Source of the DNA: an uncultured delta proteobacterium
GTDB lineage: Bacteria; Desulfobacterota; Binatia; JACPRU01
DNA length: 64,000 bases
Reading direction: 5' to 3'
NCBI GenBank assembly: GCA_963790365.1
Contig: CAWBOU010000047.1
Span: 71,429 to 135,428 of the forward strand
Position numbers and translations under genes: made by a program. Below the pieces are notes generated by a model, which saw nothing but the letters and a program-made list of their open reading frames with translations, was not told the origin of the DNA and searched no databases. Position 1 is the first letter of the stretch. Every line of letters starts with the position of its first letter. Below, piece after piece: positions 34,392-55,714 of this stretch.

Positions 34392-34474
34392 TCGGGATTC
34401 TCTTTCGACGCTACAACACCGGTTGCGCCGGTCGCAAGATCGGCAAATGTCTCTACCGAGGAGGTTCCGCGACG

Positions 34475-39027: not shown

Positions 39028-42000
39028 TCGCTCTCCCGCAGGCGAACGCCGGGCGCTTCGCGGAGCCTCACGCCCGGCCCCTCGCGCAGCTTGATGCCGG
39101 GCGCCTCGCGGAGCTTGATCCCGGGCTGCTCGATCACCGGCTGGCCGCGACGAACGCGCTCGACGCCTTCCGGCGGCGGCGCGGCCTCCGCGGCGACCGT
39201 CTGGAACGTGAGCTCCTTGCCGTCGTCGGGCGCGAAGTCCGTGACGGTGTAGAGCTCGCCGTTGCGCACGTAGAGCCGTCGCATCTCGTCCGCCGTGAAC
39301 GGGCGGCCGCCGCGGCGGCCGAAGACGGCGACCTGGTTGCCGGTCTCGTCGACCGCGCGATCGCGGTCGAGGCCCTTCGAGAGCGCGATCGCCGGGCCGT
39401 GCGTCGGGAACGATGGCGATCAAGTGCGGCTGCGGCCTCGGGCTGAAGCCGAAGTGCCCGGAGCTTCCCGTCGGCGACGTGAGCTGCAGCACGCGGAGGC
39501 CGTTCTTGCCGTCCGCGACGTAGGCGAAGAGGCTCGCGTTCGTCATGCCGACTGCGGACGCGCGCGCGTCGTTCATCTCGCCGCCCGCGTCGAACGTCTC
39601 GACGAGCTTCGGCGTCATCGGCTTCTCGACGTCGACGATCGCGATGCCCTGCGCGCCCGCTGCGACGTACGCGTACGTGCGCGCCACGTAGACGTCGTTC
39701 GCCGCGGCGATCGGCACCTTCGCGTCGGGCACAACGACCGGTTTGTCATGCTCGGTGATGTCGAGGACCTTGAGGCCCTCGGCGTCGGCGACGAACGCGT
39801 AGCGGAACTGGCGATCGATCGCCCGCGGCTTGACGATCGCGGGCGCGCCGATCTCGGCGGTCACGCGGGGATGGAGCGGATCGTCGAGGTCGACGACGAC
39901 GAGCCCGCGGTCGCAGAGCACGTAGGCGTACGTGCCGGTGATCGCGACGTTGCCGCGCCGTCGAGGACGCCGCCCGGGTTGAACGTCAGCGGCGCGCTCG
40001 AGGAAGTTGTTCGCGGGATTGCCGTCGAGCAGCGTCGCGGCGTGCACGAGGATCAAGCCCTCCTCGCGGTCGGTCACGTAGAGGTAGCGCGTAGAGCGGA
40101 TGGATCGGCTGCTCCTCGTTCTCGGCGAGCCGGTCCGCGCGGGATCGACCGCGAGCGTCGCCGGCGCCGCGACCGAGGTCGCGTCCTTCGTCTTCACGTA
40201 GAGGCGCTGCCCGAGCGGCGAGACGGGCGCCGTGGTGATGCGCTCCGAGAACGCCCTTGTTGTCGATGTTGGCGACGTCGTAGACGCGAAGGCCGCCCGG
40301 CCCGTTCGCCGCGTAGAGGTACTCGCCGCGCAGCTGCAGGCTCTGCACCTCGTCACCGCGGCCGCACAGCCAGGAGACTCGAGGATGTCGTTGCCGGGGT
40401 GCTCGATGACCTCGTCGAGCTCGCGATCGCGCTCGACGTGGCGGCGGTATCGCATCGGGATAGGCGAGCGGTGGAGCTGGCTGCCGATCACCGCCTGCGG
40501 CTCGTCGCCCTCGGTGACCGCCACCGCCTCGAGCCCTTCGTCCTCCGAGCCCGACGTACGCGAAGCGGCCGAAGAAGTTCACGAAGCTGCGTGCCGTGGA
40601 GCAGCAGCTGCGCCATCCACGCGTTGTTGTCGCCTCGGTCGGAGACGTGGCAGTCCGTGCAGACCTTCGTCTCCGTGCGCGCGCACGGTGTGCGGCACGT
40701 GCGTGTTGAACGCCTGGCCGGTGAAGCCCTCCGCGGAGATCGTCTGCTGCTGCGAGTAGAACCACTCGCGGTTCTGCGTTCTGCGAGCTCACGAGCACGC
40801 GCGCTCGACGAGCGCACCGGCGAGATCCGGCTGCCCGCGGCGGTGCCGTCGCTGCCGAGCATGAAGACGTCGTCGCGCAGCACCTGGAAGTTGTAGCCGG
40901 TCCAGTTGCGGAGCTTCTCGCCCTCGTTGTGGAGAGTTCGTGCGGCGGTTCGCCTGCTGCGAGCAGATGGCAGCCGAAGCAGCTCGTCATCCACGAGGTG
41001 TGGCACGTGAAGCAGGTCATCTTGTCGTCGCCGTGCGCGAGCGCGCTCGCGTCGTCCGGCACGTCGCCCCACGTCTTGCCGTCTCTGCGGATGGTCTTCG
41101 CGAGGCGCGAGGCCTCGTTGTAGTGCGCGCTCGCGGGATCCACGGTGTCGCGCGTCTGCACGACTTCCCACTCGACGTTCGGCGTCACCGCCGAGCGCTG
41201 GAAGAGCTTGGCGCCCTTCTTGAAGAACGCGCTCGCCGAACGCCGTGCGGTTGTACTTCTTCAGCGGATTTCCGCCCGCGGGCCCGCGGGTCTTCCAGTC
41301 GCGCGCCGTCGGATCGGCGAGCGCGGAGATCGAGCCGTGGCAGTCGATGCACTGGATCTCGATCGCGTTCCGCACCTCGCCGTAGAGCTTGCCGTCGCCG
41401 TGCGCGTCCTGCTCGAAGTGGCAGTCGACGCAGTGCATCCCCTTCTCGAGGTGGATGTCCTTGAGATGCACGGCCTTCTTGAAGCGCTCGGGATCGTCCC
41501 ACGGGATCGTCTTGCCGCGCGCGTCGAGCAGGTTGCCCTTGCGATCCTGCTTGTAGACGTTCCGGAAGATCCAGCCGTGGCCGTGGAAGTCGGCGAACTG
41601 CGTCTTCGTGAGCTTCGGGTTCAGATCCGTCAGGTTCGCGAGGAACTCCGGCGTCGGACCAAGGCCGCGGAGCGCCGCGCGGCCTCGGGTTCGCCGTCTC
41701 GAGCGTCGACGCTGCTCGCTCGCGGCGAGCGCCTCTTCGGCTCGCGCTGATACGAAGCGCTCGCCGTCGGTCTCGTTGTCCCACCAGGTCGTGCCGTAAT
41801 ACGTGTTCACGACGTTCGTGCCCGGATGCATGTGGCAGACGACGCACTGGCTCGACGGGATCGCGCTCGTGAACTGTGCCGGATCGGGTGGCCGGGCTCG
41901 TCCTTCGGGATCGTCGGGTCGACCGTCGCCGTCTGGCCGCGGTTGCCGAACTGGGCCCACGGGCCGGAGTGCACCGGGTCGCGATCGTTCGCGTAGACGA

Positions 42001-42956
42001 CGTGGCAGCCGGTGCAGCCGCTCGAGCGGTAGTCGCCGGGGTGATCGTTCGTGCCGAGCATGTGGAGGATCGGGTCGAGCAGACGCGTCTTCTGCAGGCC
42101 GAAGAAGACCGGGTCCGTGCGATTCGCCGTGCCGAGGCCGCGCTGGCTGAGTCGCCGCTCGGGCGCCCCGGAGGATCCGGCTCGAGCACGTTGATGTTGC
42201 CGATCTCGAGGGCTTCCGCCCGCCGCGCTCGAAGAAGCGGAGGATGTTGCCGGGCTGGCTGATCTCCCACCGCGCGAGCGGCGCGAGGAACGGCAGGATC
42301 CCGCGCTTTTTCGTCGCCTCCGCGTCGGGCGCATCTTTGGCGACGAGCGCCTGCGGCTTGCCGTCGCGGCCGTAGCTCTCGCCGAAGCGCGGGTCCTTCA
42401 CCGGGATCGAGCCGTTGTTGTAGAGCGCCGCGCCCCAGAGGCTCGCCCCGTGGGTCATCATGCTCGTCTTCACGCGCGCGACCTGATCCGCGTGACATCC
42501 GTCGAGCCCGCACGTGCGGTCCGCGACGCGGAGATCCCCGGGGTTCATGAACTGTACGAACTCGGGGCTCTCCTTCAGGAACGCCGCGTTCGAGCGGACG
42601 GGGTTCGCGCTCGTCTTGAAGACGTCCGCCTGAAGCGGCGCGACGTGGGCGGTCTCCTTGTCCTTGGCGCCGATGGTCCCCCCGTGACAGTCGACGCACG
42701 CGAGCGGGATGTCCGCCTCGTGCATCGACGCCGAGTCCGTCGAGGTGTGACAGGAGACGCAGCCCTCGTTCTTGCGCGTGACGTCGTCCGACGATTGGCT
42801 CATCAGGTCGACGGTCGGCGCCTTCGCGGTCTCCGCCGCGGCGGGGGTGTCCGCGCTCGCAGGCTCCGGCGCCTCGTCGGCGGTCGTCGCCACCGGCGCG
42901 ACGATCAGAAAGAGCGCGAGGAGAGTGCGCGACAGGGGGAAAGTTCTTCTTACCAC
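39024..42956 (-). pseudogene. about 1300-codon multihaem cytochrome c fused to an LVIVD-repeat beta-propeller, read through at least a dozen frame changes (or assembly indels)
   Basis: Signal MVRRTFPLSRTLLALFLIVAPVA. Haem sites CVSCH, CVDCH, CGLDGCH, CTGCH, CVVCH, CVDCH, CIDCH, CFTCH, CFGCH, CTDCH. Then, with no stop, GEYLYAANGPGGLRVYDV, GTYAYVLCDRGLVVVDLDD, YAFVADAEGLKVLDI, YAYVAAGAQGIAIVDV, FAYVADGKNGLRVLQL. C-terminus has 4x PG(I/V)(K/R)LRE. Confidence 0.7.
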
Positions 42957-44713
42957 GTGAGCGTCACGGCCAAGAAGGTCGAGAACAGCGTCTGGTCGCG
43001 GAGTATCTCGCGAAGCCCCTCGAACGGCGTCAGCGCGGCGGCGCTCGCGACGAGGATCACGTTGTCGATGAGCAGCGGCCGGTACTGGATGCCGATCGAG
43101 TAATCGAGGCCGATGTTCGGATCGATGTCGGCCTGCTCGAGCACGAGCTCGAGCGAGTCGGTTTCCGCAAAGCGGAGATAGTTCACGTTGACGACGGCGC
43201 GGAGCTTCGGCGTGAGCTCCATGTCGAAGCCCACGTTCGAGACGATGACGCCGGGGTTCACGAAGTTCGGCTGGCCCTCGAACTTGCTCGTCCGGAGGCT
43301 CGGCAAGAGCGAGAAGCGTTGGTCGAGCGCGACCGGCGCGCCAGTCAGCGGTAGGCCCTGGCGGTTCCAGTAGCTGAACCCGCCGCCCGCGAACGCGCTG
43401 TTGTCGGAGATCGTGTCGAAGCCGTTCGCATCGTCGTCGAGCGGATCGTCGTCGCCCGAGGCGTAGAGCACCGAGATCTTCGGGCGCAGCCAGTCGCGGT
43501 CGAACGAGAGCTCGAGCGCGGCGAGCTGCGCGTTGATGTCGACCTGGCGGCCGGCGATCGGATTGAAGTCGTCTTCGCCGACGACCCAGTAGAAGGCGTG
43601 ACTGACGTTCAGCCAGCCGACGTGCCCCTCACCCGCCCAGCCGGCGTAGTAGGCGTCGATGTCGTGGAAGCGGACGCTGCCGTCGGGGATGACCGAGCCG
43701 ACGACCGCCGGGCGCACGAGGAACCCGTTCTCGTCGAAGTGCGTCTCATCCGCGTGGTCCGCGTTGTAGTGGAACGAGAACTGGGTGGTGTAGCCGTACC
43801 AGAACGTGTCCTGGCGGTAGAGATTCGCGATGGCCACGTCCTGCTGGCGATCCTCGAACGCGTCGAAGCTGTCGAGGCGGTTCAAGCCGCTGTTCGTGTC
43901 CTTCTCGAGCGGGCGGAAGTACGCGAGGTTGTACTGCCACTGGTTCGCGCCCCAGTTGCCGAAGAGGCGCGCGCCCGCCTGGTTGTCCGCGAAGATGAAG
44001 CCGCGGAAGTCGCTGGTGAAGCCCTGCACGCCGAGGCGCGTCGAGATGAAGTCGTAGTAGTCGTTCAGATCGCCGAGGTGGTACTCGACGAGGGCCTCCT
44101 GGATGCCGACGAAGCCGTCGAATCGCGTGGTGCCCTCGCGCGGATCGATCTCGAGGACGTTCTCCTCGCCCGCGTCGACGTAGCTGATGTTGAAGACCGG
44201 CGTGAAGCGGATCTCCCAGTCGCGCGGCTTGAACGCGGATTGGCCTTTGAAGAACTCGAACGAGGTGACGAAGTTCTGGTTGAAGACGAGGATCTCACTC
44301 TGACCGAAGAAGTCGTCGCGATCCGCCTCGGCCGCCGGAATGCCGCTCGGCTTCGGAATCCGCGACGCCTCGAAGAGCGTGTCGGAGACGCCGGTGAACG
44401 CGAGGAAGATGTCCTGCCCGAGGATCGGGTAGTCACCCTTCGCCACGTTCTGGTTGTACGGGTCGTACCAGCGGCCCTCGACCAAGGGATGCTCGCCCGG
44501 CGTCGACTCGTAGCGCTGCCAGCGCGGGAAACCGATGCGCCATCGGTCGGGCAGCGGCAGGAAGTCGTCGTCCGTCGCGCTCTGCATGCGCCGCGGGCGG
44601 CCGGCGGCGCCGAGCGTCTGGCCGAAGTCGGGGCCGGCCTCTTGCGCGGCCGCGACGAGCGGCGACGAGAGGCACGCGAGAAGCACGGACACTGCCGTCC
44701 TTCGAGCATTCAT
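42950..44713 (-). CDS. outer-membrane beta-barrel (porin-like) protein
   Basis: Signal MNARRTAVSVLLACLSSPLVAAAQ; alternating beta-strand-like composition rich in Y/F/W/G/N/D; terminal ..FLAVTLTW (aromatic C-terminus). Overlaps the cytochrome start by 7 nt. Confidence 0.75.
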   Translation of the reverse strand: MNARRTAVSVLLACLSSPLVAAAQEAGPDFGQTLGAAGRPRRMQSATDDDFLPLPDRWRIGFPRWQRYESTPGEHPLVEGRWYDPYNQNVAKGDYPILGQDIFLAFTGVSDTLFEASRIPKPSGIPAAEADRDDFFGQSEILVFNQNFVTSFEFFKGQSAFKPRDWEIRFTPVFNISYVDAGEENVLEIDPREGTTRFDGFVGIQEALVEYHLGDLNDYYDFISTRLGVQGFTSDFRGFIFADNQAGARLFGNWGANQWQYNLAYFRPLEKDTNSGLNRLDSFDAFEDRQQDVAIANLYRQDTFWYGYTTQFSFHYNADHADETHFDENGFLVRPAVVGSVIPDGSVRFHDIDAYYAGWAGEGHVGWLNVSHAFYWVVGEDDFNPIAGRQVDINAQLAALELSFDRDWLRPKISVLYASGDDDPLDDDANGFDTISDNSAFAGGGFSYWNRQGLPLTGAPVALDQRFSLLPSLRTSKFEGQPNFVNPGVIVSNVGFDMELTPKLRAVVNVNYLRFAETDSLELVLEQADIDPNIGLDYSIGIQYRPLLIDNVILVASAAALTPFEGLREILRDQTLFSTFLAVTLTW

Positions 44714-44715: not shown

Positions 44716-46302
44716 CTATCGTTCCGGTTGGCGGTTGAACTTCAGGTACGGAATCCGTTCTCCGGCGAAGAAGAAGTTGTCGATGCGGATCGCGTCGGGC
44801 GGCTCGAAGCCTTCGGCACCCTCGGCGGCGATCACGTCGTTGTTCTCGACGCCGTCGCCCGAGACGCCGAGCCCGCCGATCAGGTTGCCGGCGCCGTCGT
44901 AGAGCGGCACGGCGCCCGGGAAGAACGTGAGGCCGTTCTGCCGTCCGGGCACCGGCGGCGCGTTGCCGAGGCGCGTCGCCTGCTCGGGACGCTGGTTCTG
45001 CAGCGCGAGGTTGAAGAGCGGGCCGGGCGCGGTGCCGTCGATGCCCGGCGGGAAGACCGGCTGCGAGAGGAAGCCGAGCGCGGTCGTCGTGGTCGCCGTA
45101 CCGTTCGGGACGCCGGGGATCGCGTCCTGCGGCGCGGGCCCTTCCGGCCGGCTGTAGTAAACCACGGAGCGCGCCTTCGCAGGCACGACGTCGACCGCGT
45201 CCGTCAGGCAGTCCTCCATCCGGAAGTGGCCGAGGATGAGGCCATCGAGATCCGTGATCGTGATGATCACGACGGCGGTCGTGCCGCCGGGCAGACGGAC
45301 CGCCGCGCGCGTGCGGTTCGAGCTCGCCACCGCCTGCTGAACGATGCGATCGACCGCTTCCGCGGGGAAATTGCCGCGAGGGCTGCTGCGCGGCCCGATC
45401 AGATAGCCGAACGGATCGACGTTGCCGTCACGCGGCGCGACCGTGATCGCGCCCGAGCCGTCGCCGGGCGGCGCACCCGCTGGACGGTCGAACGTCGCGA
45501 CGAACGGCAGGCGGATGCCGAACAGCACGACCGCGCCCTCCGGCGGAATGTCCACGGGAAAGCGGAAGCCGGCCGAGCCGGAGAACGCGGCGAACTCGCT
45601 CGCGTCGAAGGACAGGCTCGGCGCGTAGGCACCGACGCCGCCGACGAGCCGGCCGTTCTTGTAGAGCGGCACCGCGCCCGGGAGCAGCGTGATGCCCGGG
45701 CTCGGGAAGCTGCCGTCGATGTTCGTCGAGCGCGGATATGCCTGTCCGGGATTGAAGCTCGTGTCCCCCGTCTCGATCGGCGCGCCGCGGTTCGTCGCGT
45801 TGATCTGCCAGAGCGGCCCTTGGTCGGTCCCGGGAACCCCGGAGGTCGTGAGCTGCGGCGCGATCACCGTCGGGCCGCAGCTGCCGCCGCTCGACGGACA
45901 GACGGACGGGAGCAGCGGCGCCGAGAACGTCGGCGGGAAGTGGAAGGCGCCGAGGAACTGCACGGTGCGCGAGCTGAGCGGCGCCTGGCTGTTCGAGAAG
46001 AACGAGGTCGTGCGGGCGAGGCTGACGGCGATGTTCTGCACGTCGCGGCCCGCGCCGGGATAGGCGAAGACGCCGAGGATCGAGCCCTGGCGGTCCGTCA
46101 CGGCGAGCGCCAGGTCGCTCGCGGCGACCGCCGCCGCGCCCTGCTGGAGGACCTGCGAGACGTCGCCGGCGGTGAGCGGCGTGACCGGGCCGAACGTGGG
46201 CGTTTCGAGATCGCTCCCGCTGCCGCCGCAGCCGATCGCGATCGCCGCGACGAGAACCGCGAATCGTCGCGAAGTGCGCCCCAGGATCGCCGGCTCCCCC
46301 AT
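44716..46302 (-). CDS. lipoprotein with two GlcG/HbpS-like (DUF336) domains
   Basis: ATG 46302 after GGAGGAGG. MGEPAILGRTSRRFAVLVAAIAIGC lipobox. Two copies of (LA)VTD..G.ILG.. and PGAVPLY..G.L(V/I)GG(V/L)G(A/V); the second is PGAVPLYDGAGNLIGGLGVSGDGVENNDVIAAEGA. Confidence 0.75.
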   Translation of the reverse strand: MGEPAILGRTSRRFAVLVAAIAIGCGGSGSDLETPTFGPVTPLTAGDVSQVLQQGAAAVAASDLALAVTDRQGSILGVFAYPGAGRDVQNIAVSLARTTSFFSNSQAPLSSRTVQFLGAFHFPPTFSAPLLPSVCPSSGGSCGPTVIAPQLTTSGVPGTDQGPLWQINATNRGAPIETGDTSFNPGQAYPRSTNIDGSFPSPGITLLPGAVPLYKNGRLVGGVGAYAPSLSFDASEFAAFSGSAGFRFPVDIPPEGAVVLFGIRLPFVATFDRPAGAPPGDGSGAITVAPRDGNVDPFGYLIGPRSSPRGNFPAEAVDRIVQQAVASSNRTRAAVRLPGGTTAVVIITITDLDGLILGHFRMEDCLTDAVDVVPAKARSVVYYSRPEGPAPQDAIPGVPNGTATTTTALGFLSQPVFPPGIDGTAPGPLFNLALQNQRPEQATRLGNAPPVPGRQNGLTFFPGAVPLYDGAGNLIGGLGVSGDGVENNDVIAAEGAEGFEPPDAIRIDNFFFAGERIPYLKFNRQPER

Positions 46303-46366
46303 GTCCTCCTCCCCGATGCGGCGGGTAACACGCCCGCTCACGCACGGTCAACGAGAGTCAAACGAG

Positions 46367-46462: not shown

Positions 46463-49400
46463 TCACGACCAGGCGATGACTTGCTCCTGCTTCTCGACGA
46501 ACGGCACGCCGATCTTTTCGATCCAGCCGCGCGGCGGGTCCGCGCCGATGAGCGCGAAGACGTGCACGCAGTCGAGCGTGCGCGGCCCGGCGGCGAGCTT
46601 CAGCACGGCACCCTCGGCGCGCAGCTCGGTCACCGACGACTCCCAGACGATCTCGATCCGGCCGGCCTTCGAGAGCTCCTCGATCTGCTCGAGATTCCGC
46701 TTCTTCACGCGCGCAAACGCGTTCTTGCGGTAGGAGAGCCAGACGGTCGTGCCCTCCGCCTTGCCGAGCGCGACGGCCGCCTCGATCGCGCTGTCGCCGC
46801 CGCCGACGACGAGCACCTTCTTGCCCTTCCAATCCCCGGCGTCGATCAGGTTGTAGGAGACGAGGCCCGCCTCTTCGCCCGTGCAGCCCAGACGACGCGG
46901 GTTCCCGCGCGTGCCGATCGCGAGCACCACGTTCGCGGCGGTGTACTCGCCCTTCGCGGTCTTCACCTTGAGGAGCTCGCCCTCGCGGCGGATCTCGCTC
47001 ACTTCCTCGTGCTGCTGCACCTCGAGGCCGGTCGCCTTCACGACCGCTTCCCACACCGCGATCAGCTCGTCCTTCTCGGCGTCCATCATGGGAAGCTTGC
47101 CGTAGAGCGGAACCTTCACGGGCTCGGCGAGCACCGCCTTGTCGCGCGGGTACGCGCGGATCGTGCTCGCGACCGTGTCGCGCTCGAGGACGAGGTAGCG
47201 GAGACCCGTGGCCTTCGCCTCGAGGCCGGCGCCGAGGCCGGCGGGCCCGGCGCCGACGACGATCACGTCGTAGTGCGGCGCAGCGACTCGCTTCTTCTTG
47301 TCCTTGATGTACCGCACGACGTCGGTGCCCTGGTTCACCGCCGATTTGATCAGCGCGGCACCGATCACCTCGCCAACGAAGAAGAGGCCCGGCATCGGCT
47401 TCGCCTCGAGGTGGTCGTCCGTGTCCGGCCGCTCGACCGTGCGCACCAGCGGCGCGGTGCTGACGCGGATCGCACCCGTCGGACAGCCCTGCTCGCAAAC
47501 CGCGCAGCCTTCGAGCGCGATGCAGCTGTCGGGATTGACGACGGTCGACTTGCCGTGGTCGTCGCCCGCGAGCACCTGCTTCGGGCACGAGTTGTAGCAG
47601 CTGCTGCACGAGATGCAGGCTTCGACGTCGACCGTCGGGAAGGGCATGACCTCGCCCTTCGGAGTGTCTCCCTCGGGCGGCGCTCCGGCCGGCGCCTGGC
47701 CCGGCCCGGCCGCGGCCTGCTCCGGCTCGAGATAGCGCCGCGCGACGCGCATGTCCGTGTAGAGGTAGGCGAAGCCGCCGAGGATGAGCGTCGCGAGCCC
47801 GATCAAGAAGCGATCGAAGCCGCGTGCGGGCGGGGCCGCGGCCGCGGCGGTCTCGCCGCCGTCGAAGCTGTGGTGCGAGCGATGGCAATCGAGGCACGCG
47901 ACCGTCGCCTTCTTCTCCTCGTGGCAGGTCACGCACGCGTCCATCGTCATCACGTAGACGTCGGGCGAGCGGAACACGCTCGCGTACGTCCCCTCCTCCC
48001 ACACCGGCGCGTGGCAGCTCTGGCAGAGCTCCTCGCCATGATCGCGATGCGCGAACCGCGTCCACGCGAACGCGCTCGGCGGGAGCTCCTGCATCTCCCC
48101 GTCCTCGCGCGTGTGGCATTCGAGACAATCCGGGCCCTTCTTCTGCTGCGCGACCTTCTCGTCCGCCGAGACGGCCTTCTCGTGGCACTCGATGCACTGT
48201 GCGTGGCCGGGCATCGCGAACGTGCGGCCGTCGTCCACGTTCGCGTGGCAGCCCGTGCAGTTGTCGAACCTCGCCTCCCCTTTCGTTTCCGCATCGTGAG
48301 CCGCGTGCGCGAAGCGGAGACCGATCTCGACCTTGCGGAACGGCTCGGCGAGCTTGGCGATCGCGGCGGTGCCGCCGGCGACCGTGGCCGCCGCGCGCAT
48401 CGGCCGCGCGTCGAAGTCGCGCGGCTCGTCGCGCCCGAGGTGGCAGCTCCAGCAGACGTCCTTGCCGCCGGCGATCGGGAAATTCCGGCCGCGATGGTCG
48501 GTGTGGCAATCGAGGCAGTTGTCCTGGATACCTGGTTCGTTCGCGAGCGCGCTCGCGTGGCAGTCCGCGGTGACGCAGCTGCCACTCATCGCGAGCTGCG
48601 TCTGACGAGTGCCGATGCCCTCGAAGCCGGCGTGGCAGCTGCCGCACTTCTCGCGCGACTCGAGCTCGGCATGCTCGGCGTGGAGCGGCCCGGCCGAGAG
48701 CAGCGCCGGATACTGCATGCTGAAGCCGAGCGAGACGATCGCGGCGAGGAGCATCATGCCGAGGCTCGCCCACTGTCGCGGCGTGCCGGGCACGCGCACC
48801 GGGCGAAGGCTCACGCCCTTCATGATGCGGCTGATCCGCTGCTTCGCCTCGGCGCTCTTCGCGAGCTCCGGGATCGGCTCCGCCTTCTTGCCCTTGCCCT
48901 TCGCGGCCGGCGCTTCCCCACCCGCGGCCGGTGGCGCGGCGGAAGGCGGTGCGGCAGGAGGCGGCGGAGCCGCGGCCACCGCGCCGATGCGCGTGAGCTG
49001 CGTGCCCTCCTCGACCGCGGACGCGACGCCGGCTCCGCCGAGCTCCACCGCGACGCGCGCATCGCCGAGCCGGAGCTCCTCGCCGCCGCGAAGCGGAAGC
49101 GACTGCACGCGCTCCGTGGAATCGCCGACGAACGTGCCGTTCCGGCTGCCGATGTCCTTCAGGACCCAGCCATCCGGCGTGCGCAGGACCGTGCAGTGAT
49201 TCCCCGAGACCGAGGGATCGTCGATCCGGAGCATCGCGGCCGAGCTGCGGCCGATCGTCACCTCTTGCGTGCCGGCCGGGACCTCGAGCACGCTGCCGGA
49301 CGCGAGGATGCGGAAGCGGAGCACGGGCGGGGCGTCGGCCGCCGGCACTGCGTCGGTGGCGGGCAGCGGCGCATCCGCCGGAGCCGCCTCGGCTTCAGCC

Positions 49401-50164
49401 TCGCGCGGGCGGATCGCGGTGAGCGATGGCATCGAGAGCGCGAACGTGGACTCGCCCACCTTGATCGCGAACGTCTGCTCGGAGGCCTCGACCTTGGCGC
49501 CGCCGCCCATCTCGACGCGGATCTGAGTGCCGCCGCCGAGCCGCACGATGTCTCCATGCGCGAGAACGCCGTGGTAGATCCTTTGCGGAGGCGTGCCGAC
49601 GTAGATGCCGTTTCGGCTGTTCTCGTCGTAGATCGCGTAGCCGCCCTTCTCGCGCTTGATCGTCGCGTGAAGGCGCGAGAGCGACGGGTCGTTCAGCGGC
49701 ACGTCGTTCGTCGGCAGCCGCCCGAGCGTGATCTTCTCCTTCGGCGGCGAGAAGACCTGGCCGCGATCCGGCCCGGAGACGACCGTGAGCACGATCGGCA
49801 GGTCCGACGGCAGCTGCGCGATGACGGTCGCGCCTTCGGCCTTCACGGCCGCGGCCTGCCCGGCGAGGATCGCGACGCGGAGGCGCGCCTTGCCGACGAG
49901 AATCGTCTCGCCGTCGGCGAGCCGCCGGCGCTTCACCCGATCCTGCGAGCCCTCGACGAACGTGCCGTTCCGACTCTCGAGATCGACGAGCGCGAAGCCG
50001 TCGCCGTCGCGCTCGATCGCGGCGTGCTTGCGCGAGATCTGATCGTCGTCGAGCTCGACGTCGGCTTCGACACGCCCGATCGTGAGCCGCTCACCACGCA
50101 GCTCGAACTCATGCCGTTTCTTTTCAGCATCGAACCAGGCGAGCTTCAGTCGCGTCGAAGGCAT
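46463..50164 (-). CDS. 3x FHA, TM, about 10-haem cytochrome c domain, TM, 2x[4Fe-4S] ferredoxin, FAD/NAD(P)-binding oxidoreductase fusion protein (1233 aa)
   Basis: Uninterrupted ORF. FHA patterns at aa 25-95, 143-215 and 300-372. Hydrophobic helices at aa 465-483 and 785-802. Nine CxxCH plus CVTADCH between them. CISCSSCYNSCP and CIALEGCAVCEQGCP. VIVVGAGPAGLGAGLEA and VLVVGGGDSAIEAA. Confidence 0.9.
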   Translation of the reverse strand: MPSTRLKLAWFDAEKKRHEFELRGERLTIGRVEADVELDDDQISRKHAAIERDGDGFALVDLESRNGTFVEGSQDRVKRRRLADGETILVGKARLRVAILAGQAAAVKAEGATVIAQLPSDLPIVLTVVSGPDRGQVFSPPKEKITLGRLPTNDVPLNDPSLSRLHATIKREKGGYAIYDENSRNGIYVGTPPQRIYHGVLAHGDIVRLGGGTQIRVEMGGGAKVEASEQTFAIKVGESTFALSMPSLTAIRPREAEAEAAPADAPLPATDAVPAADAPPVLRFRILASGSVLEVPAGTQEVTIGRSSAAMLRIDDPSVSGNHCTVLRTPDGWVLKDIGSRNGTFVGDSTERVQSLPLRGGEELRLGDARVAVELGGAGVASAVEEGTQLTRIGAVAAAPPPPAAPPSAAPPAAGGEAPAAKGKGKKAEPIPELAKSAEAKQRISRIMKGVSLRPVRVPGTPRQWASLGMMLLAAIVSLGFSMQYPALLSAGPLHAEHAELESREKCGSCHAGFEGIGTRQTQLAMSGSCVTADCHASALANEPGIQDNCLDCHTDHRGRNFPIAGGKDVCWSCHLGRDEPRDFDARPMRAAATVAGGTAAIAKLAEPFRKVEIGLRFAHAAHDAETKGEARFDNCTGCHANVDDGRTFAMPGHAQCIECHEKAVSADEKVAQQKKGPDCLECHTREDGEMQELPPSAFAWTRFAHRDHGEELCQSCHAPVWEEGTYASVFRSPDVYVMTMDACVTCHEEKKATVACLDCHRSHHSFDGGETAAAAAPPARGFDRFLIGLATLILGGFAYLYTDMRVARRYLEPEQAAAGPGQAPAGAPPEGDTPKGEVMPFPTVDVEACISCSSCYNSCPKQVLAGDDHGKSTVVNPDSCIALEGCAVCEQGCPTGAIRVSTAPLVRTVERPDTDDHLEAKPMPGLFFVGEVIGAALIKSAVNQGTDVVRYIKDKKKRVAAPHYDVIVVGAGPAGLGAGLEAKATGLRYLVLERDTVASTIRAYPRDKAVLAEPVKVPLYGKLPMMDAEKDELIAVWEAVVKATGLEVQQHEEVSEIRREGELLKVKTAKGEYTAANVVLAIGTRGNPRRLGCTGEEAGLVSYNLIDAGDWKGKKVLVVGGGDSAIEAAVALGKAEGTTVWLSYRKNAFARVKKRNLEQIEELSKAGRIEIVWESSVTELRAEGAVLKLAAGPRTLDCVHVFALIGADPPRGWIEKIGVPFVEKQEQVIAWS

Positions 50165-50174: not shown

Positions 50175-51245
50175 TCAGTAGTAGAAGACCGACACGATGT
50201 GGATCAGCGAAAACGCCGCGAGCCCCGCGGAGAGCGGAATGTGCGCGGTGAGCCACACCTTCAGCAGGTAGTCGTATCGCAGCTGCGGATAGAGCGAGAC
50301 TTCGAGCTTCTCCTTGTCGAAGACGAGCCGCATCGCCTTGCGGAAGTCCTCCTGCTCGCCGGCAGGGATCTCCTTGACGATCAGCCGCAGGCGATCCGGC
50401 CGGCTCGTGTCGCGCTCGAGCGTCGCCGGGCCCCAGATCCAGGGGAGCGACGGCTTCATCGCGATGCCCGGAATCGACATCTCGACGTCGTACACGCGGC
50501 GGAACGCGTCGGACTTCCCGGTCGCGAGACCCTTCAGCTCTTCGAGGACCTGCTTCAGCTCGTCCCGCAGCTCCTCCGGCGACCGCGCCGCCTTCTCCTC
50601 GATCTCCGTGAGCCTCGGCGGGATGCGGCGGTAGAGGACCACACCGAGGAGCCCGGTCAGCACGACGGCGACGAGCAGCACGAAGGCGATCGCGGCGATC
50701 GGGTTCGCGAAGCGGAAGCCCGCGTGAAGGAGGATCAGCACGACGGCGAGCACGCCGAGCGCGAGATGCCACTCGTACCAGACCTGCAGACGCCCGCCCC
50801 ACTCGCGCCGCTCGAAGACGAGCCGCGGCGCGCCGCTGCTCGTCTTCAGGAGGCGCACGCGGATCGTCCTCGTCACCTTGTGGCGCTTCAGGATCTTCTT
50901 CACCTCGCTCCGGAGCTGCCGCAGGTCCTGCTTCGGATTCTGCATCAGCGAGCGCTCGACGCCGCGAAGGTCGTTCTGCGCCTTGCGCTCGCGGCTCACG
51001 AGGTCCCTGCGCTTCTCCGCGTCGATGAGGATCGGCCGGCTCGCGCGCTCGATCTGCCGACGCCGCCATCCGTAGAGACCGGCGACGATCATCGCGAGCG
51101 TGCCGAAGATGCCGAGCCACACGCCCGTCGCCGAGCGGCCGGAAGGCGCGAGCGGACGAACCGAGGCGTCCTGCGTGTACCAGATGGCGCACGCGATCGC
51201 GGCGAGCACCGCGATCGACACCACTCGCAACCTGAGAGCGCTCAC
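50175..51245 (-). CDS. 5-TM membrane protein with two H-x13-H helices (candidate dihaem b-type cytochrome)
   Basis: 356 aa. Helices around aa 8-24, 41-60, 160-177, 183-205 and 331-353. His160/His174 and His335/His349 are each spaced by 13 residues inside helices. Starts 4 nt after the upstream stop. Confidence 0.75.
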   Translation of the reverse strand: MSALRLRVVSIAVLAAIACAIWYTQDASVRPLAPSGRSATGVWLGIFGTLAMIVAGLYGWRRRQIERASRPILIDAEKRRDLVSRERKAQNDLRGVERSLMQNPKQDLRQLRSEVKKILKRHKVTRTIRVRLLKTSSGAPRLVFERREWGGRLQVWYEWHLALGVLAVVLILLHAGFRFANPIAAIAFVLLVAVVLTGLLGVVLYRRIPPRLTEIEEKAARSPEELRDELKQVLEELKGLATGKSDAFRRVYDVEMSIPGIAMKPSLPWIWGPATLERDTSRPDRLRLIVKEIPAGEQEDFRKAMRLVFDKEKLEVSLYPQLRYDYLLKVWLTAHIPLSAGLAAFSLIHIVSVFYY

Positions 51246-51249: not shown

Positions 51250-52794
51250 CTACTCCCGAGCGGAAATGATGCGATCCAGCTCGTCGGCGCGCAGCCGCTG
51301 GATCGCCCCCGTTGGACAGTTGCTCACGCAGGCGGGGAACAGATGTCCCTTGTCGAGATCGCACTTCACGGGGATGCGCTTCAGCTTCGGCCGCTTGTCC
51401 GTCGCTTCCGGGACGTCGGCGCGGCGCCGGCCGTCGCGGCGCAGCACGACGTCGATCAACGAGGGCACCGCCGGCCGATCGATCTCGTCGGTGTCGACCA
51501 TCGTGATGTTCCCGTAGGGACACCGCTGCGCACATCCGCTGCAGCCGATGCAGCTCTCGGTGAAGTAGATGTCACCGTCCTTGTCGCGCTTGATGCCGCC
51601 CGACTTGCAGAGGAGGCACGACGGATCCTGACAGAAGCGGCACGCCGTCGGGATCATCAGCTCTTCGAAGTGCACGCCCTTCCGGATCAGGCGCGAGAAG
51701 CCGTCTTCGTGCGCGGCCGCGCAGGCCTTCACGCAGTTGTCGCAGCGAACGCACGTATCTTCGTTGATCACGATGACGTCGAGGTTCGGCATGACCTCGG
51801 CGCGAAGCTCCATGCGCCTGCCGACGAACGTGACGTTCGCGACCATGTCGGCGTCGAGGCGCCGTACTTGATCGACGGCCCCGGCCTCCGCCGCGGCCGC
51901 GGGATTCGACATCACGATCTCGCGGAACGCCTTGCCCGCGAGGACGAGCGCTTCGACGCGGCCGAGCGCCGTGGCGGTCGCGGAGCGAGGCGCCCCGTTG
52001 AGGACGCCGACGTCACCGAAACAGTCGCCTTCGACGAGATACGAGAGGACCCTCGTTTCGCCGTCGGCCTCGCGCTGGGCGATCTTCACGAAGCCGGTGG
52101 AGATCACGAAGACGTCGTCGGAAGGCTGTCCCTGCTCGAAGATCGTCGCGCCGACCTCGAACGTGCGCGTCGACGCCGCGCGGAGCACGTTCTCGAACTC
52201 CTTCTCGCTCGCCGAGCGCAGCACCGGCACGCGACGCACGAGCGTGCGGATCACCCGGAACACGTACCGCTCCATGATCGCCGCGCGGAAGCTTTCGGTC
52301 GTCGAGACGAGCTCTTGGACGATGAACTGCGGGATCAACATCAAGAGCGCCGGCGTCTTCGTCACGACGCTCGCGAGGTGTGCGTTCATGGAAAGCACAG
52401 AGTGCTCGCCGAAGAACGAGCCTTCGGGAAGATCGTCGACCGGCAGCGCGACGGTGCGATCGATGTCGGCGGAGTAGTTCGTCGACATCCCCGCCTGCCC
52501 GCGCAGGATGAAGAAGAGATGCTCGCCGAAGCTGCCTTCCTGGAAGACGCTCGTGTCGGCCGGAACTTCCCAGAACTCCGCGTGCTCGCCGAGCGCATCG
52601 CCGACGGAAACCTTGACCGGCCCCTTCGCGCCCGGCCGCGTCTCGTACGGCTTGTCGAGCAGGTCCTTGAAGAGCGCGAGGCCTTGGAAGAAGCGCAGCT
52701 TCTCGTCCGCGGAGAGGCTCAGCTGCTTCACCGCCGGCGATCGCGTCAGCGCAAAGCTCGGTCGATGAGCTTCGCTCGACTCCAGGAGTGCCAT
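51250..52794 (-). CDS. two cyclic-nucleotide-binding domains fused to a multi-cluster [4Fe-4S] ferredoxin domain
   Basis: ATG 52794 (MALLESSE..). cNMP-like FQEGSFGEHLFFILRG..FFGEHSVL, and a canonical second domain IFEQGQPSDDVFVISTG..CFGDVGVLNGAPRSATATA. CVRCDNCVKAC, CRFCQDPSCLLC, CIGCSGCAQRCP, ..ACVSNCP. Confidence 0.85.
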   Translation of the reverse strand: MALLESSEAHRPSFALTRSPAVKQLSLSADEKLRFFQGLALFKDLLDKPYETRPGAKGPVKVSVGDALGEHAEFWEVPADTSVFQEGSFGEHLFFILRGQAGMSTNYSADIDRTVALPVDDLPEGSFFGEHSVLSMNAHLASVVTKTPALLMLIPQFIVQELVSTTESFRAAIMERYVFRVIRTLVRRVPVLRSASEKEFENVLRAASTRTFEVGATIFEQGQPSDDVFVISTGFVKIAQREADGETRVLSYLVEGDCFGDVGVLNGAPRSATATALGRVEALVLAGKAFREIVMSNPAAAAEAGAVDQVRRLDADMVANVTFVGRRMELRAEVMPNLDVIVINEDTCVRCDNCVKACAAAHEDGFSRLIRKGVHFEELMIPTACRFCQDPSCLLCKSGGIKRDKDGDIYFTESCIGCSGCAQRCPYGNITMVDTDEIDRPAVPSLIDVVLRRDGRRRADVPEATDKRPKLKRIPVKCDLDKGHLFPACVSNCPTGAIQRLRADELDRIISARE

Positions 52795-52843
52795 GAGATG
52801 GGACCGTCTACCCGACTGCGACGCGCGACGGCAAGGAGCGCGG

Positions 52844-53626
52844 ATGTCAGTGCCGCCTCTCATCTGCTATGGGGCGCCCGTGGCTGCCCCCTCGCCCATC
52901 GACGACGCGCTCCGTCCCGTCGGCGAGCTCGCGGCCGGTTACGTCGACGACGGCATGCGCGTCGGCCTCGGAACCGGACGCGCCGCGTCGGCGTTCGTTC
53001 ACGCGCTCGCGCTGCGCGCGCGTGAGGGGCTCGACGTCGTCGGCGTGCCGACGTCCGAAGCGACGCGACGACTCGCCGAATCTCTGGGGCTCCGCGTCAC
53101 GGAGCTCGACGGCGTCGGCGAGCTCGATCTCACCGTCGACGGCGCGGACGAGGTCGATCCCCATCTCGATCTGATCAAGGGGCTCGGCGGCGCCCTCGTG
53201 CGCGAGAAGATCGTCGCGGCTTCGTCGGCCCGGCTCGTGATCGTCGTCGGCGGCGAAAAGCTCGTCTCTCGCCTCGGCGTGAAGACGCCGGTGCCGGTCG
53301 AGATCGTGCAGTTTTCCCGGCCGCTCTGCGAGCGGCTCATTCGCGCGCTCGGCGCCGAGCCGCGCCTGCGGATGACCCCCGCCGATTCGAAAGCGCCGTA
53401 CGTCACCGACAACGGAAACTTCATCTTGGATTGCCACTTCGCCGGCATCGACCATCCCCGCGCTCTGGAAGTCGCGCTGCGGGAGATCCCGGGGGTCGTC
53501 GGCACCGGCCTGTTCCTGAACATGGCGGAGCGGGTTCTCGTGCAGGAAGGCAACACGGTGCGCGTCCTCATGGCGCAACCGTCGCAGAGCGGAGCGACCT
53601 TGCATCCGATCGGGAAAGGGAAATAG
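52844..53626 (+). CDS. rpiA: ribose-5-phosphate isomerase A
   Basis: ATG 52844. [46 protein letters not shown]. Confidence 0.9.
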
Positions 53627-53636
53627 GCCTGCGACG

Positions 53637-55688
53637 ATGACCGCCGAACAGCTCGATCAGCTCGCGATCAACACGATTCGCTTCCTTTCGGCGGACGCCG
53701 TGCAGAAGGCGAACTCCGGTCATCCCGGCCTCCCCATGGGTGGCGCGGCGATGGCCTATGCGCTCTGGACGCGATTCCTTCGCCATTCCCCGACGCAGCC
53801 CGATTGGCCGGATCGCGACCGCTTCATCCTCTCCGGCGGCCACGGCTCGATGCTCCTCTACTCCCTCCTCCATCTCACCGGCTACGACCTGCCGATGGAG
53901 GAGATCCAGTCGTTCCGGCAGTGGAAGAGCCGGACGCCCGGCCACCCCGAATCGCACATCACGAAGGGCGTGGAGGCGACCACGGGCCCGCTCGGCCAGG
54001 GTCTTTCGAACGCGGTCGGCTTCGCGATCGGCGAGGCGCACCTCGCCGCCAGCTTCAATCGCCCCGGGCACGCGATCGTCGATCATCGCACCTGGGTGAT
54101 CGCGAGCGACGGCGACGTCATGGAGGGCGTCGCCTCCGAAGCCTGCTCGCTCGCCGGGCACCTTCGCCTCGGCAAGCTGAACGTCCTCTACGACGACAAC
54201 CAGATCTCGCTCGCGGGCACGACGTCGCTCTCGTTCAGTGAAGACGTCGGCAAGCGCTTCGAGGCGTACGGCTGGCACGTGCAGCACGTCGCCGACGGCA
54301 ACGACCTCGAGGCGGTCGACCGAGCCTGCAAGCGAGCGCTCGAGGCGACCGACCGGCCGTCGATCATCTGCGTCCGGACGATCATCGGCTACGGCGCGCC
54401 GCACAAGGCGAACACGTTCGAGGCGCACGGCTCGCCGCTCGGTCCCGACGAGCTGAAGGCCGCGAAGGAGAATCTCGGCTGGCCGCTCGAGCCCGCGTTC
54501 CTCGAGCCGCCCGAGGCGCTCGCGAAATTCCGCGCGTCGGTGGAAGCCGGCAAGCTGCTCGTCGCCGAGTGGACGAAGCGCTTCGACGCGTATCGCCAGG
54601 CGCATCCCGATCTCGCCGCGGAATTCGAGCGCCGCATGGCGGGCAAGCTGCCGGACGGCTGGGACGCCGAGATTCCGACGTTCCCCGCCGACGAGAAGGG
54701 GCTCGCGACACGGAAAGCTTCCGAAGCGGTGATCCAAGGGCTCGCGAAGAAGCTCCCCGAGCTCTTCGGGGGCTCGGCCGATCTCAACCCCTCGACGTTC
54801 ACGTGGATCAAAGGCGCAGGCGACTTCGAGAGCCCGGCCGCGTCGAAAGACGGCGCGCAGGGTGCGGTCGGCGGCCCGTGGGGCTACGACGGACGGAACC
54901 TCCATTTCGGCGTCCGCGAGCACGGGATGGGCTCCGCGGTGAACGGCCTCGCGTATCACGGCGGCTTCATCCCCTACGGCTCCACCTTTCTGATTTTCTC
55001 CGACTACATGCGCGCCGCGATCCGGCTGTCCGCGCTCTGCGAGCTCGGCTCGCTCTGGATCTTCACGCACGATTCGATCGGCCTCGGCGAGGACGGGCCG
55101 ACGCACCAGGCGGTCGAGCACTATGCCGCGCTGCGCGCGATCCCGGGCCTCCTCTTCATCCGTCCGGGCGACGCGAACGAGACGGCCGTCGCGTATCGCG
55201 CCGCGATCGAGAATCGCCATCGCCCGACGGTCTTCGCGCTCACGCGCCAGAACGTGCCGACGCTCGACCGCACGAAGTTCGCCTCGGCGGACGGGGTGCG
55301 GAAAGGCGCGTACGTGCTGAACCCCGACGTAACGAACCCCGAGGCGATCTTGATGGCGACCGGCTCCGAGATAGGGCTGATCGTCACGGCCGGTGAGACG
55401 CTCGCGAAGAAGGGCGCCCGCGTGCGGCTCGTGTCGATGCCGTGCTGGGAGCTCTTCGCCGAGCAGCCGGACGGCTATCGCGAGAGCGTCCTCCCCGCCG
55501 GCGTGAAGCGCCGCCTCGCGGTCGAGAGCGGCGTGTCGCTCGGCTGGCATCGCTGGGTCGGCGACGCGGGCGAGCTCGTCACGCTCGAGCGCTTCGGCGC
55601 CTCGGCCCCCGCCCCGCGCCTGATGAAGGAATTCGGATTCACGACGGAGAACGTCGTCGCCCGCGCCGAGAAGCTGCTCGGCCGCTAG
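53637..55688 (+). CDS. tkt: transketolase
   Basis: 683 aa. [57 protein letters not shown]. Confidence 0.95.
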
Positions 55689-55714
55689 ATTTCTCGACGA
55701 AACGGAGATCGCGC

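Follow-up and report, generated by a model that had tools for sequence, protein, structure and literature searches.

A triple-FHA, decahaem cytochrome c, ferredoxin and flavoprotein fusion from an uncultured Binatia and its predicted place in a transmembrane redox complex

The window analysed here is a stretch of 64,000 nucleotides, with a GC content of about 69%, from an uncultured member of the Binatia. Its minus strand carries at positions 46463–50164 an open reading frame (ORF) without interruption, which encodes a membrane protein of 1233 residues. From the N- to the C-terminus the protein comprises three FHA domains, a first transmembrane (TM) helix, a decahaem cytochrome c domain, a second TM helix, a 2x[4Fe-4S] ferredoxin domain, and a flavin adenine dinucleotide (FAD) and NAD(P)-binding domain that resembles thioredoxin reductase (TrxR) and YpdA. 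The features of the ORF are listed below; AlphaFold2 (AF2) models are cited with their predicted local distance difference test (pLDDT) scores.

49892–50083, minus strand: FHA domain 1 (residues 28–91, the best Pfam stretch), with conserved GR, SRxH and NGTF
49538–49738, minus strand: FHA domain 2 (about residues 143–209, approximate bounds), with G148, R149, S163, H166 and G186 nearly invariant
49067–49267, minus strand: FHA domain 3 (about residues 300–366, approximate bounds; Pfam and NCBIfam stretches at residues 284–439 and 293–370)
49001–49003, minus strand: Thr388, a candidate phospho-acceptor, threonine in 12 of 12 full-length homologues, in a linker after FHA domain 3 that is otherwise variable
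48713–48781, minus strand: TM helix 1 (residues 462–484; Kyte–Doolittle 1.77–1.93), an AF2 helix over the same residues, with Q464 and W465 invariant
47870–48691, minus strand: predicted periplasmic decahaem cytochrome c domain (residues 492–765), with nine CxxCH and one CxxxxCH, all haems probably bis-His
47729–47824, minus strand: TM helix 2 (residues 781–812), an AF2 helix with pLDDT 64–74; Kyte–Doolittle 1.55, weaker than TM helix 1
47462–47638, minus strand: 2x[4Fe-4S] ferredoxin domain (residues 843–901), with matches to Fer4_7, Fer4_10 and Fer4_21 and eight invariant cysteines
47285–47452, minus strand: conserved segment PGLFFVGEVIGAALIKSAVNQG before the Rossmann fold (residues 905–960), AF2 pLDDT 88–95
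46466–47278, minus strand: TrxR/YpdA-like FAD and NAD(P)-binding domain (residues 963–1233), without CxxC, assigned from Pyr_redox_3, the YpdA profile and PDB entry 7a76

The codon-position GC of the ORF (0.69/0.50/0.91) matches that of real genes in the window, and the third-position value (GC3) of 0.91 is even along its whole length. The frame is uninterrupted, as reported in the initial annotation. An identical protein (P0001) is on record on a 349-kb contig. Thirteen further full-length or near-full-length homologues of 1161–1417 residues, 39–55% identical and mostly labelled Candidatus Binatia, come from different projects and have the same domain order. Since about 13 independent assemblies share this order in end-to-end alignment, the 1233-residue fusion is real and conserved and not a chimera. 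The existence of separate-gene versions elsewhere (loci L033 and L041) and of frame switches about 4 kb downstream on the same contig would fit an assembly chimera or a pair of neighbouring genes joined by a frameshift. However, the number of independent assemblies, the uniform GC3 and the identical protein on the 349-kb contig rule this reading out for practical purposes. Homologues are either fused or tightly linked and never unlinked, and every domain first proposed (FHA, multihaem cytochrome c, Fer4 and Pyr_redox) is matched by Pfam profiles. Searches of the literature on Binatia multihaem cytochromes and extracellular electron transfer, on LVIVD with multihaem proteins, and on cyclic nucleotide (cNMP) binding with 4Fe-4S and multihaem proteins yielded no description of this fusion, in agreement with the earlier remark that no characterised protein has this architecture; the only related descriptions were of FHA-multihaem proteins in Gallionellaceae. 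Motif conservation is reported below for an alignment of 15 homologues, with the Thr388 count taken from the 12 full-length ones; gene neighbourhoods were taken from P0006, P0002 and a genome scan.

The region between the two helices (residues 484–784) contains exactly 20 cysteines, all of them in haem-binding motifs, and 20 histidines. Sites 1–5 are CGSCH 507, CVTADCH 530, CLDCH 550, CWSCH 571 and CTGCH 636, and sites 6–10 are CIECH 657, CLECH 680, CQSCH 714, CVTCH 744 and CLDCH 757; the nine CxxCH and single CxxxxCH motifs thus lie where the initial annotation had placed them. Half of the histidines are the proximal ligands within the motifs, and the ten others match the number needed if all ten haems are bis-His. 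The cysteines and histidines of the motifs are all invariant or nearly so, and nine of the extra histidines are conserved, 498, 557, 620, 623, 654 and 706 invariantly and 709, 764 and 765 nearly so. The Pfam families Cytochrome_C7 (29.9 bits, cut-off 24.8) and Paired_CXXCH_1 (23.3 bits, cut-off 20.6) match the ORF, as does Cytochrom_CIII, and an alignment to cytochrome c7 (1kwj and 1ehj, E 0.02–0.03) covers the last three haems. By its motifs, its distal histidine count and its profile matches, the domain is a predicted multihaem cytochrome c of class III (c3/c7-type). Its modules are of the c7/c3 type and its ligand counts are solely those of bis-His haems, so that it fits an electron wire better than a catalytic or sensing haem protein.

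FHA domains are cytoplasmic, whereas c-type haems are attached outside the cytoplasm. The 1233-residue protein lacks an N-terminal signal peptide. A conserved cytoplasmic motif, LRPxxxPGxPRQW, precedes TM helix 1; the 20 residues before this helix include five K/R and no D/E, the stretch after it no K/R and three D/E, and a stretch RVARR follows TM helix 2. In the Rhodocyclales locus L033 the counterpart of TM helix 2 is the N-terminal TM helix of a separate 431-residue Fer4-flavoprotein, and TM helix 2 is still present at the end of L011, a Binatia paralogue that lacks the flavoprotein. The comparison of these split and paralogous forms bears on topology independently of the hydropathy and charge signals. 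Taken together, the charge bias, the AF2 helices and the N-terminal helix of the split version strongly indicate a protein with both termini in the cytoplasm and a periplasmic haem domain, in line with the two-helix topology proposed at the outset.

The ferredoxin domain has the two motifs of a 2x[4Fe-4S] ferredoxin, CxxCxxCxxxCP and Cx5CxxCxxxCP, with cysteines 850, 853, 856, 860, 881, 887, 890 and 894 all invariant or nearly so. It matches the Pfam families Fer4_7 (residues 850–898; 29.6 bits, cut-off 27) and Fer4_10 (28.4 bits, cut-off 25.5). The flavoprotein that follows matches Pyr_redox_3 (residues 968–1220, E 1.8e-40) and Pyr_redox_2 (E 5e-24), the Pfam region being residues 965–1222, and its dinucleotide loops GAGPAG and GGGDSA are invariant or nearly so. 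The original assignments of a Fer4 domain and an FAD/NAD(P) reductase are confirmed by these profiles and by the conservation of ligands and loops.

The best match of the flavoprotein in the PDB is 7a76, both by sequence (E 5.6e-23) and by Foldseek (E 4.5e-21), and further fold matches include 3ab1, 2zbw and 6gas. The two-Rossmann FAD/NADPH fold is thus shared with YpdA/Bdr and with the TrxR-type ferredoxin-NADP+ reductases (FNRs) (7a76, 7a7b, 2zbw, 3ab1 and 6gas), to which the 1233-residue protein adds a fused 2x[4Fe-4S] domain and a membrane anchor. Membership of the YpdA/Bdr family (TIGR04018) was rejected at 150.9 bits against a cut-off of 339.9 and by the loss of the loop cysteine, the loop reading GAGPAG here and GGGPCG in 7a76 and 7a7b (Cys to Ala). 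We take this cysteine of the YpdA GGPCG loop to be the reported catalytic Cys14. Membership of the thioredoxin reductases (TIGR01292) was likewise rejected, with 83.3 bits against 343.45 and no CxxC in residues 963–1233. The comparison with TrxR-type FNRs (3ab1, 2zbw and 6gas) yields a fold match, the absence of CxxC and a conserved C-terminal tryptophan. At least 90% of homologues have this tryptophan, which lies at the extreme C-terminus (residues 1232–1233, nucleotides 46466–46471) and recalls the flavin-stacking C-terminal aromatic residue of the ferredoxin-NADP+ reductases. A stretch SYR(K/R) after GGGDSA is conserved, with R1146 nearly invariant; we take it to occupy the position at which TrxR binds the 2'-phosphate of NADPH.

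The query lacks the usual C-terminal FAD segment: its alignment with 7a76 ends at residue 271 of 326, and all flavoprotein alignments end about 40–55 residues short of the ends of the reference families. The first Rossmann loop is preceded by a conserved PGLFFVGEV...NQG that AF2 models with high confidence, and the 65-residue pre-Rossmann segment matches weakly (E 0.5–1.1) the GD-motif region of dihydrolipoyl dehydrogenases. This segment is possibly the relocated FAD 'GD' motif of a circularly permuted fold. Artificial de-permutation did not extend the YpdA alignment (85.4 versus 84.7 bits), and the gain in score was a mere 4 bits for Pyr_redox_2 and 9.5 bits for HI0933_like. The most economical reading of the domain would be an NADPH:ferredoxin-type reductase to which its ferredoxin has been fused.

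Neither TM helix 1 nor TM helix 2 contains a histidine or cysteine that is conserved in the homologue alignment, so that the gap of about 3 nm between the cytoplasmic iron–sulfur (FeS) clusters and the periplasmic haems is left unbridged by the 1233-residue polypeptide. The single-polypeptide conduit envisaged in the initial annotation is for this reason not supported in that form, although its idea of a regulated conduit is retained. Two genes directly upstream of the ORF encode candidate partners.

50175–51245, minus strand: partner 1, a 356-residue protein with five TM helices, a predicted di-haem cytochrome b, ending 10 nt upstream of the ORF start
51250–52863, minus strand: partner 2, a 537-residue cytoplasmic protein that combines a pair of cNMP-binding domains with a HydN/DmsB-like multi-[4Fe-4S] domain, 4 nt upstream of the gene at 50175–51245

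Two pairs of histidines on two helices, with one histidine of each pair near each membrane face, are the classical signature of a di-haem cytochrome b. The 356-residue protein has five predicted TM helices, two large charged loops and four invariant histidines, one pair on TM3 (H160 and H174) and one on TM5 (H335 and H349). The two residues of a pair are 14 apart, which agrees with the cytochrome b pattern of four histidines in two pairs, 13–14 residues apart, on two TM helices. All four are invariant in 59 homologues. They are kept across Binatia, Binataceae, Acidobacteriota and Rhodocyclales, four lineages of at least three phyla, at 22–32% identity, where few columns are invariant. The family comprises about 60 clusters, almost all from Binatia, and has no annotation. 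Since the four invariant histidines lie in the product of the adjacent gene and none in TM helices 1 and 2 of the fusion, the 356-residue protein, probably a di-haem cytochrome b, is most likely the missing transmembrane wire.

The 537-residue partner matches the Pfam family cNMP_binding over two stretches (E 7.5e-33) as well as Fer4 families, and NCBIfam profiles for HydN, AegA and DmsB-like proteins match it below threshold. The position of this cNMP-FeS gene before the cytochrome b gene is conserved in many loci. On the strength of these data, the ORF product would join the two partners in a redox complex of the inner membrane, as the largest of three subunits that are all encoded by one tight operon, a proposal that we regard as evenly balanced between right and wrong.

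The neighbour proteins of the window were compared with 82 related loci by tblastn. The order cNMP-Fer4, cytochrome b, multihaem cytochrome, (FHA), flavoprotein is found in Binatia, Binataceae, Acidobacteriota, Gemmatimonadales and others, in dozens of loci. Whether fused or split, and with fusions in both orders, the three-protein set is seen again in Binatia, Acidobacteriota, Planctomycetota and Betaproteobacteria, and in many Betaproteobacteria the cytochrome b and cytochrome c pair adjoins a Fer4-flavoprotein gene. In the Acidobacteriota locus L041 all parts are separate genes, with FHA proteins encoded between the cytochrome and flavoprotein genes and with FHA and 2Fe-2S domains on the flavoprotein itself. 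In L033 the cytochrome and the flavoprotein are encoded by adjacent, overlapping genes, and L025 has a cytochrome-flavoprotein fusion without FHA domains. The paralogue mentioned above (L011, 9998–12370, from the same Binatia metagenome-assembled genome (MAG) as L006) has the order FHA3-TM-decahaem-TM and no ferredoxin-flavoprotein. The genes after it encode an alpha/beta hydrolase and a luciferase-like monooxygenase, and there is only a short cytochrome b-like match upstream.

A word-indexed search with the C-terminal 794 residues returned 25 proteins only, and the breadth of the family required an exhaustive search, in which the Fer4-flavoprotein module is represented by 648 representative clusters at E <= 1e-30. 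Among these forms, P0209 (1087 residues) has the reverse order, with the flavoprotein first and the multihaem cytochrome C-terminal, and P0205 (977 residues) is a cNMP-Fer4-flavoprotein fusion with an N-terminal cNMP-binding domain. P0201 has two FHA domains and P0217 (1384 residues) has five. Because fusions occur in both orders and with each of the regulatory domains, there is a strong argument that the parts work together. In the stretches examined, Caenimonas koreensis DSM 17982 has a Fer4-flavoprotein and a distant multihaem cytochrome gene, with no cytochrome b detected, and Rubrivivax albus ICH-3 has the Fer4-flavoprotein only; complete split sets come solely from MAG or isolate assemblies such as L021.

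The other genes of the window that adjoin the operon or may bear on its function are the following.

52793–57082, plus strand: ribose-5-phosphate isomerase A (RpiA), transketolase (Tkt) and transaldolase (Tal), by Pfam, divergent from the operon
44716–46341, minus strand: 541-residue protein with an HbpS-like domain (Pfam, E 1.5e-17) and a lipoprotein-type N-terminus (...AIAIGCGGSG)
42950–44713, minus strand: 587-residue protein, a candidate outer-membrane beta-barrel, with a signal peptide and C-terminal ...LTW
37963–42956, minus strand: multihaem cytochrome with MtrC/ExtM-like motifs and LVIVD-repeat protein (Pfam; NCBIfam ExtM, E 1.4e-19)
33081–34841, minus strand: Hanks-type Ser/Thr kinase with a PEGA domain (Pfam Pkinase, E 2.9e-45), 11.6 kb from the ORF

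The window is one of five distinct loci in which the module has pentose-phosphate genes beside it. Glucose-6-phosphate dehydrogenase (G6PD), glucokinase and 6-phosphogluconolactonase (6PGL) adjoin it in L001/L005 (L001, 130–7178) and L006 (2832–7201), and G6PD and glucokinase in L025 (6–3769) and L026 (265–5487). This linkage hints that NADPH from sugar oxidation may be the electron source. Within the window, tblastn also detected a G6PD-like stretch at 19762–20307 (minus strand, 67% identity), which looks partial, and a 6PGL-like stretch at 18631–19239 (minus strand), each about 30 kb from the operon.

At least ten loci, from several phyla, have the trio of candidate barrel, multihaem cytochrome and LVIVD protein near the module; the 587-residue protein has no Pfam or NCBIfam match. 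The trio of the window may correspond to a "porin-scaffold-cytochrome" cluster that, according to a 2026 preprint, is expressed in Acidobacteriota of peat. An LVIVD protein described from Tenderiales is unrelated context. The HbpS-like gene, of a haem-binding or haem-degrading family, sits between the inner-membrane and the outer-membrane modules, and homologues of its product occur near the module in L007, L025–L029, L037, L042, L058 and L074. Its product may serve as a carrier of haem or electrons in the periplasm. Scans for promoters and terminators between 44 and 53.5 kb gave nothing above shuffled expectation.

Pfam FHA (PF00498) matches the fusion in three stretches (E 1.7e-48, 163.3 bits against a cut-off of 20.7), and each of the three domains has the residues for phospho-Thr binding (GR, SxxH and NG), which are kept in homologues, including the nearly invariant G305, R306, S320, H323, N342 and G343 of FHA domain 3. 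The three FHA domains first noted are thereby confirmed, and all are predicted to bind phospho-Thr. Owing to these conserved residues and to the invariance of Thr388, gating of the complex by Ser/Thr-kinase signalling is plausible from its sequence. The two cNMP-binding domains of the FeS subunit, which were missed in the initial annotation, would provide a second regulatory input.

The kinase listed above is the only one in the window according to tblastn, as had been stated, although its reading frame extends to 34841 and not merely to 34391. Six distinct loci have a Hanks kinase within 10 kb of the module. The clearest genomic link of the module to Ser/Thr signalling is in L064 (11134–12613), from a Candidatus Solibacter MAG, where genes for a PP2C phosphatase and a Hanks kinase come directly after the homologous multihaem cytochrome gene and before those for the outer-membrane barrel, cytochrome and LVIVD proteins. 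The kinase of the window ends a run of envelope genes (27608–34841, minus strand) that encode an HlyD-type membrane-fusion protein, an OEP outer-membrane factor and two CsgG-domain proteins, one of which is fused to AhpC/TSA and TPR; this run may be a kinase-linked secretion or envelope system. The commonest FHA-only matches in the homologue search were FHA-ABC transporters. A tandem of cytoplasmic FHA domains is likewise found at the N-terminus of the Mycobacterium tuberculosis ABC transporter Rv1747, with linker threonines as possible docking sites; however, the machine that bears the FHA domains here is a redox complex and not a transporter.

FHA and cNMP-binding domains are typical signalling modules, and c-haem sensor domains are found in chemoreceptors and kinases of Geobacter. 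The assembly might therefore be a redox sensor or signalling scaffold, in which the periplasmic haems sense the redox state of the envelope and alter FHA or flavoprotein activity or partner binding, with no net electron throughput. However, ten bis-His haems, a di-haem b partner, about six FeS clusters and candidate outer-membrane cytochromes exceed the needs of a sensor, and the operon encodes no output domain (kinase, GGDEF or DNA-binding). We consider a sensor very improbable.

The preferred mechanism is a regulated electron exporter with the path NAD(P)H, FAD, FeS, haem b and haem c, which in our judgement stands an even chance of being correct. NAD(P)H, and probably NADPH, would reduce the FAD of the TrxR-like domain, from which electrons would pass to the fused 2x[4Fe-4S] clusters and possibly also to the FeS wire of the cNMP-binding subunit. 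NADPH is favoured as the donor because the flavoprotein resembles the NADPH-dependent YpdA, TrxR and TrxR-type FNR, and the NADPH-producing pentose-phosphate neighbours fit the use of NADPH better than its production. The membrane would be crossed by way of the two b haems of the 356-residue partner, the inner one held by His160 and His335 near the cytoplasm and the outer one by His174 and His349 near the periplasm. The outer haem b would then reduce the ten bis-His c haems between TM helices 1 and 2, and these in turn would serve periplasmic acceptors or the candidate outer-membrane barrel, cytochrome and LVIVD module encoded downstream. Outward flow would be exergonic, aided by the membrane potential and dissipating it, as in NADPH oxidases. 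As outward flow dissipates energy, the presence of two regulatory inputs on the cytoplasmic face (three FHA and two cNMP-binding domains) would be explained. The wider proposal, on which we are tentative and inclined to doubt, is of a widespread, quinone-independent exporter driven by NADPH, with the system described here as its founding example, a bacterial functional analogue of the NADPH oxidases that would deliver cytoplasmic reducing power directly to an outer-membrane conduit and be switched by Ser/Thr phosphorylation and cyclic nucleotides.

The domain content, topology signals, conservation of cofactor ligands, conserved gene linkage and fusion patterns are direct observations, and several points weigh against the exporter built on them. 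That the three proteins form a complex and that haem b is bound are inferences, as are the identity of the donor, the direction in which electrons flow and the gating. The 356-residue protein reaches the threshold of none of the curated cytochrome b families Ni_hydr_CYTB, DUF4405 and Ferric_reduct: DUF4405 matches 18 of the 59 members below threshold (best E 5.3e-6) and Ni_hydr_CYTB 5 of 59, and a Foldseek search of its AF2 model (pLDDT 81) against the PDB found nothing better than E 0.2, which neither supports nor contradicts the assignment. In the AF2 model of residues 440–1233 the haem domain has pLDDT below 50, as expected for a model without haems, and the model gives no haem geometry, no distances between cofactors or from haems to membrane, and no packing of the TM helices. 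The donor could be ferredoxin or another reductant instead of NAD(P)H, and a quinone site on the 356-residue cytochrome b is possible. The linkages to the outer-membrane module and to pentose-phosphate genes hold for only a subset of loci, and a kinase or PP2C lies within 10 kb in only some, so that this linkage is sporadic. Finally, the reading frame switches within 37963–42956, where no single frame has high GC3 throughout. There the L002 orthologue matches in three frames by tblastn, and part of an 822-residue translation resembles out-of-frame text rich in Arg and Pro. These switches are probably assembly indel errors or signs of pseudogenisation.

The main rival is a quinone-coupled module, in which the cytochrome b and the decahaem domain form a quinol:cytochrome c (or cytochrome c:quinone) oxidoreductase, like CbcL, ImcH, CymA or NrfH, and the Fer4-flavoprotein feeds or drains the quinone pool or has only a regulatory role. 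Known links of multihaem cytochromes to metabolism at the inner membrane are nearly all quinone-dependent, and di-haem b proteins of the Ni_hydr_CYTB type, to which the sub-threshold matches point, usually bind quinone. Quinone reduction was also proposed for the FHA-nonahaem protein of Ferrigenium (bioRxiv 10.64898/2026.01.22.701106). However, membership of the NapC/NirT/NrfH/CymA quinol dehydrogenases was rejected, no such family being among the 25 best Pfam or NCBIfam matches, and QrcA reached only 33.9 bits against a cut-off of 180. The geometry of four histidines on two helices spans the membrane, as expected of through-membrane transfer, and the quinone scheme offers no reason for the repeated fusion or tight linkage of the FeS-flavoprotein in both gene orders. 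We therefore judge this scheme unlikely, though a serious contender.

The closest described relative of the exporter proposed here is the 'NHC' cluster of Ferrigenium straubiae, which encodes an FHA-TM-nonahaem protein together with 5-TM and [4Fe-4S] proteins and is uncharacterised (bioRxiv 10.64898/2026.01.22.701106, section 6.3.2). Its authors state that combinations of FHA and multihaem domains had not been reported before (bioRxiv 10.64898/2026.01.22.701106). In addition, cluster 403 of a Gallionellaceae pangenome, a 'Forkhead-associated protein, 10 CXXCH' with no function assigned, is present in 27 genomes (PMC10734462). Like the Binatia protein, these have cytoplasmic FHA domains, a TM helix and a periplasmic cytochrome c with 9–10 haems and lack signal peptides. 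The Ferrigenium cluster, compared here by description only, likewise has 5-TM and [4Fe-4S] proteins as neighbours. However, the Ferrigenium protein has one FHA domain, one TM helix and no ferredoxin or flavoprotein, whereas the Binatia protein adds the second helix, the ferredoxin and the flavoprotein. The 5-TM partner in the window has four invariant histidines, whereas its counterpart in Ferrigenium was reported to have no redox motif. In further disagreement with the exporter, the Ferrigenium authors, working on an Fe(II) oxidiser, favoured inward transfer to quinone (bioRxiv 10.64898/2026.01.22.701106).

The complexes Tmc (TmcABCD) and Hmc (HmcABCDEF) of Desulfovibrio and Cbc of Geobacter share the overall layout of a periplasmic multihaem cytochrome c, a membrane cytochrome b and cytoplasmic FeS proteins. 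They differ from the present system in that its cytoplasmic end is an NAD(P)-type flavoprotein and not a CCG/HdrD-like protein, its cytochrome c is tethered by two helices, and FHA and cNMP domains are present. Membership of Qrc, Hmc or Tmc was rejected, as no subunit reaches an equivalog cut-off; for the FeS subunit HmcB scores 21.2 bits against 420 and DsrO 30.2 against 200. The similar layout of Hmc and Tmc, the weak HmcB-like and DsrO-like matches of the FeS subunit, the relatives in Fe(II)-oxidising Gallionellaceae and the closeness of the flavoprotein to the disulfide reductase YpdA/Bdr among solved structures would suit an inward conduit. Periplasmic or extracellular donors would then feed electrons through the haem wire, the cytochrome b and the FeS/FAD centres to NAD(P)+, ferredoxin or a low-molecular-weight disulfide, as in Tmc and Hmc. 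However, reduction of NAD(P)+ by donors at the level of Fe(II) is uphill, and inward electrons oppose the membrane potential. The flavoprotein also lacks CxxC, has alanine for the YpdA loop cysteine and misses the YpdA and TrxR equivalog cut-offs widely, and the pentose-phosphate neighbours suit the consumption of NADPH. An inward conduit is thus improbable in our view.

A functional parallel to the exporter is offered by the NOX, Fre and STEAP proteins, in which cytoplasmic NAD(P)H reduces a flavin, two b haems held by His pairs on two helices, and finally an acceptor outside. These systems are also electrogenic, dissipate the membrane potential and are regulated by phosphorylation or second messengers. 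Nonetheless, there is no relation in sequence or fold: no Ferric_reduct match was found and the flavoprotein is TrxR-like and not plant-FNR-like. In addition, the Binatia system has FeS clusters between flavin and haems, delivers electrons to a ten-haem cytochrome c and not directly to O2 or Fe(III), and is distributed over three polypeptides.

The system as a whole would be a transmembrane complex of multihaem cytochrome, cytochrome b and FeS proteins in which both the fusion and the regulatory domains are without precedent and the haem b subunit had gone unrecognised. To our knowledge, multihaem electron routes from the cytoplasm to the outside of the cell are well worked out in only a few model organisms, where they run via the quinone pool, and we know of no demonstration that FHA domains regulate a bacterial electron-transfer complex. 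If the mechanism proposed here is true, the chain of flavoprotein, FeS, haem b and haem c bypasses the quinone pool, and phospho-Thr and cNMP control would be carried on the respiratory complex itself. An unannotated family is also given a probable role as a di-haem b membrane wire, the counterpart of which was judged redox-inactive in the study of an Fe(II) oxidiser (bioRxiv 10.64898/2026.01.22.701106). The module is widespread in abundant uncultured lineages of soil and sediment, and parts of it occur in cultured Betaproteobacteria. If the reading is correct, the uncultured soil phyla concerned (Binatia, Acidobacteriota and Planctomycetota) and some Betaproteobacteria would have in it a redox valve by which extracellular electron transfer is regulated.

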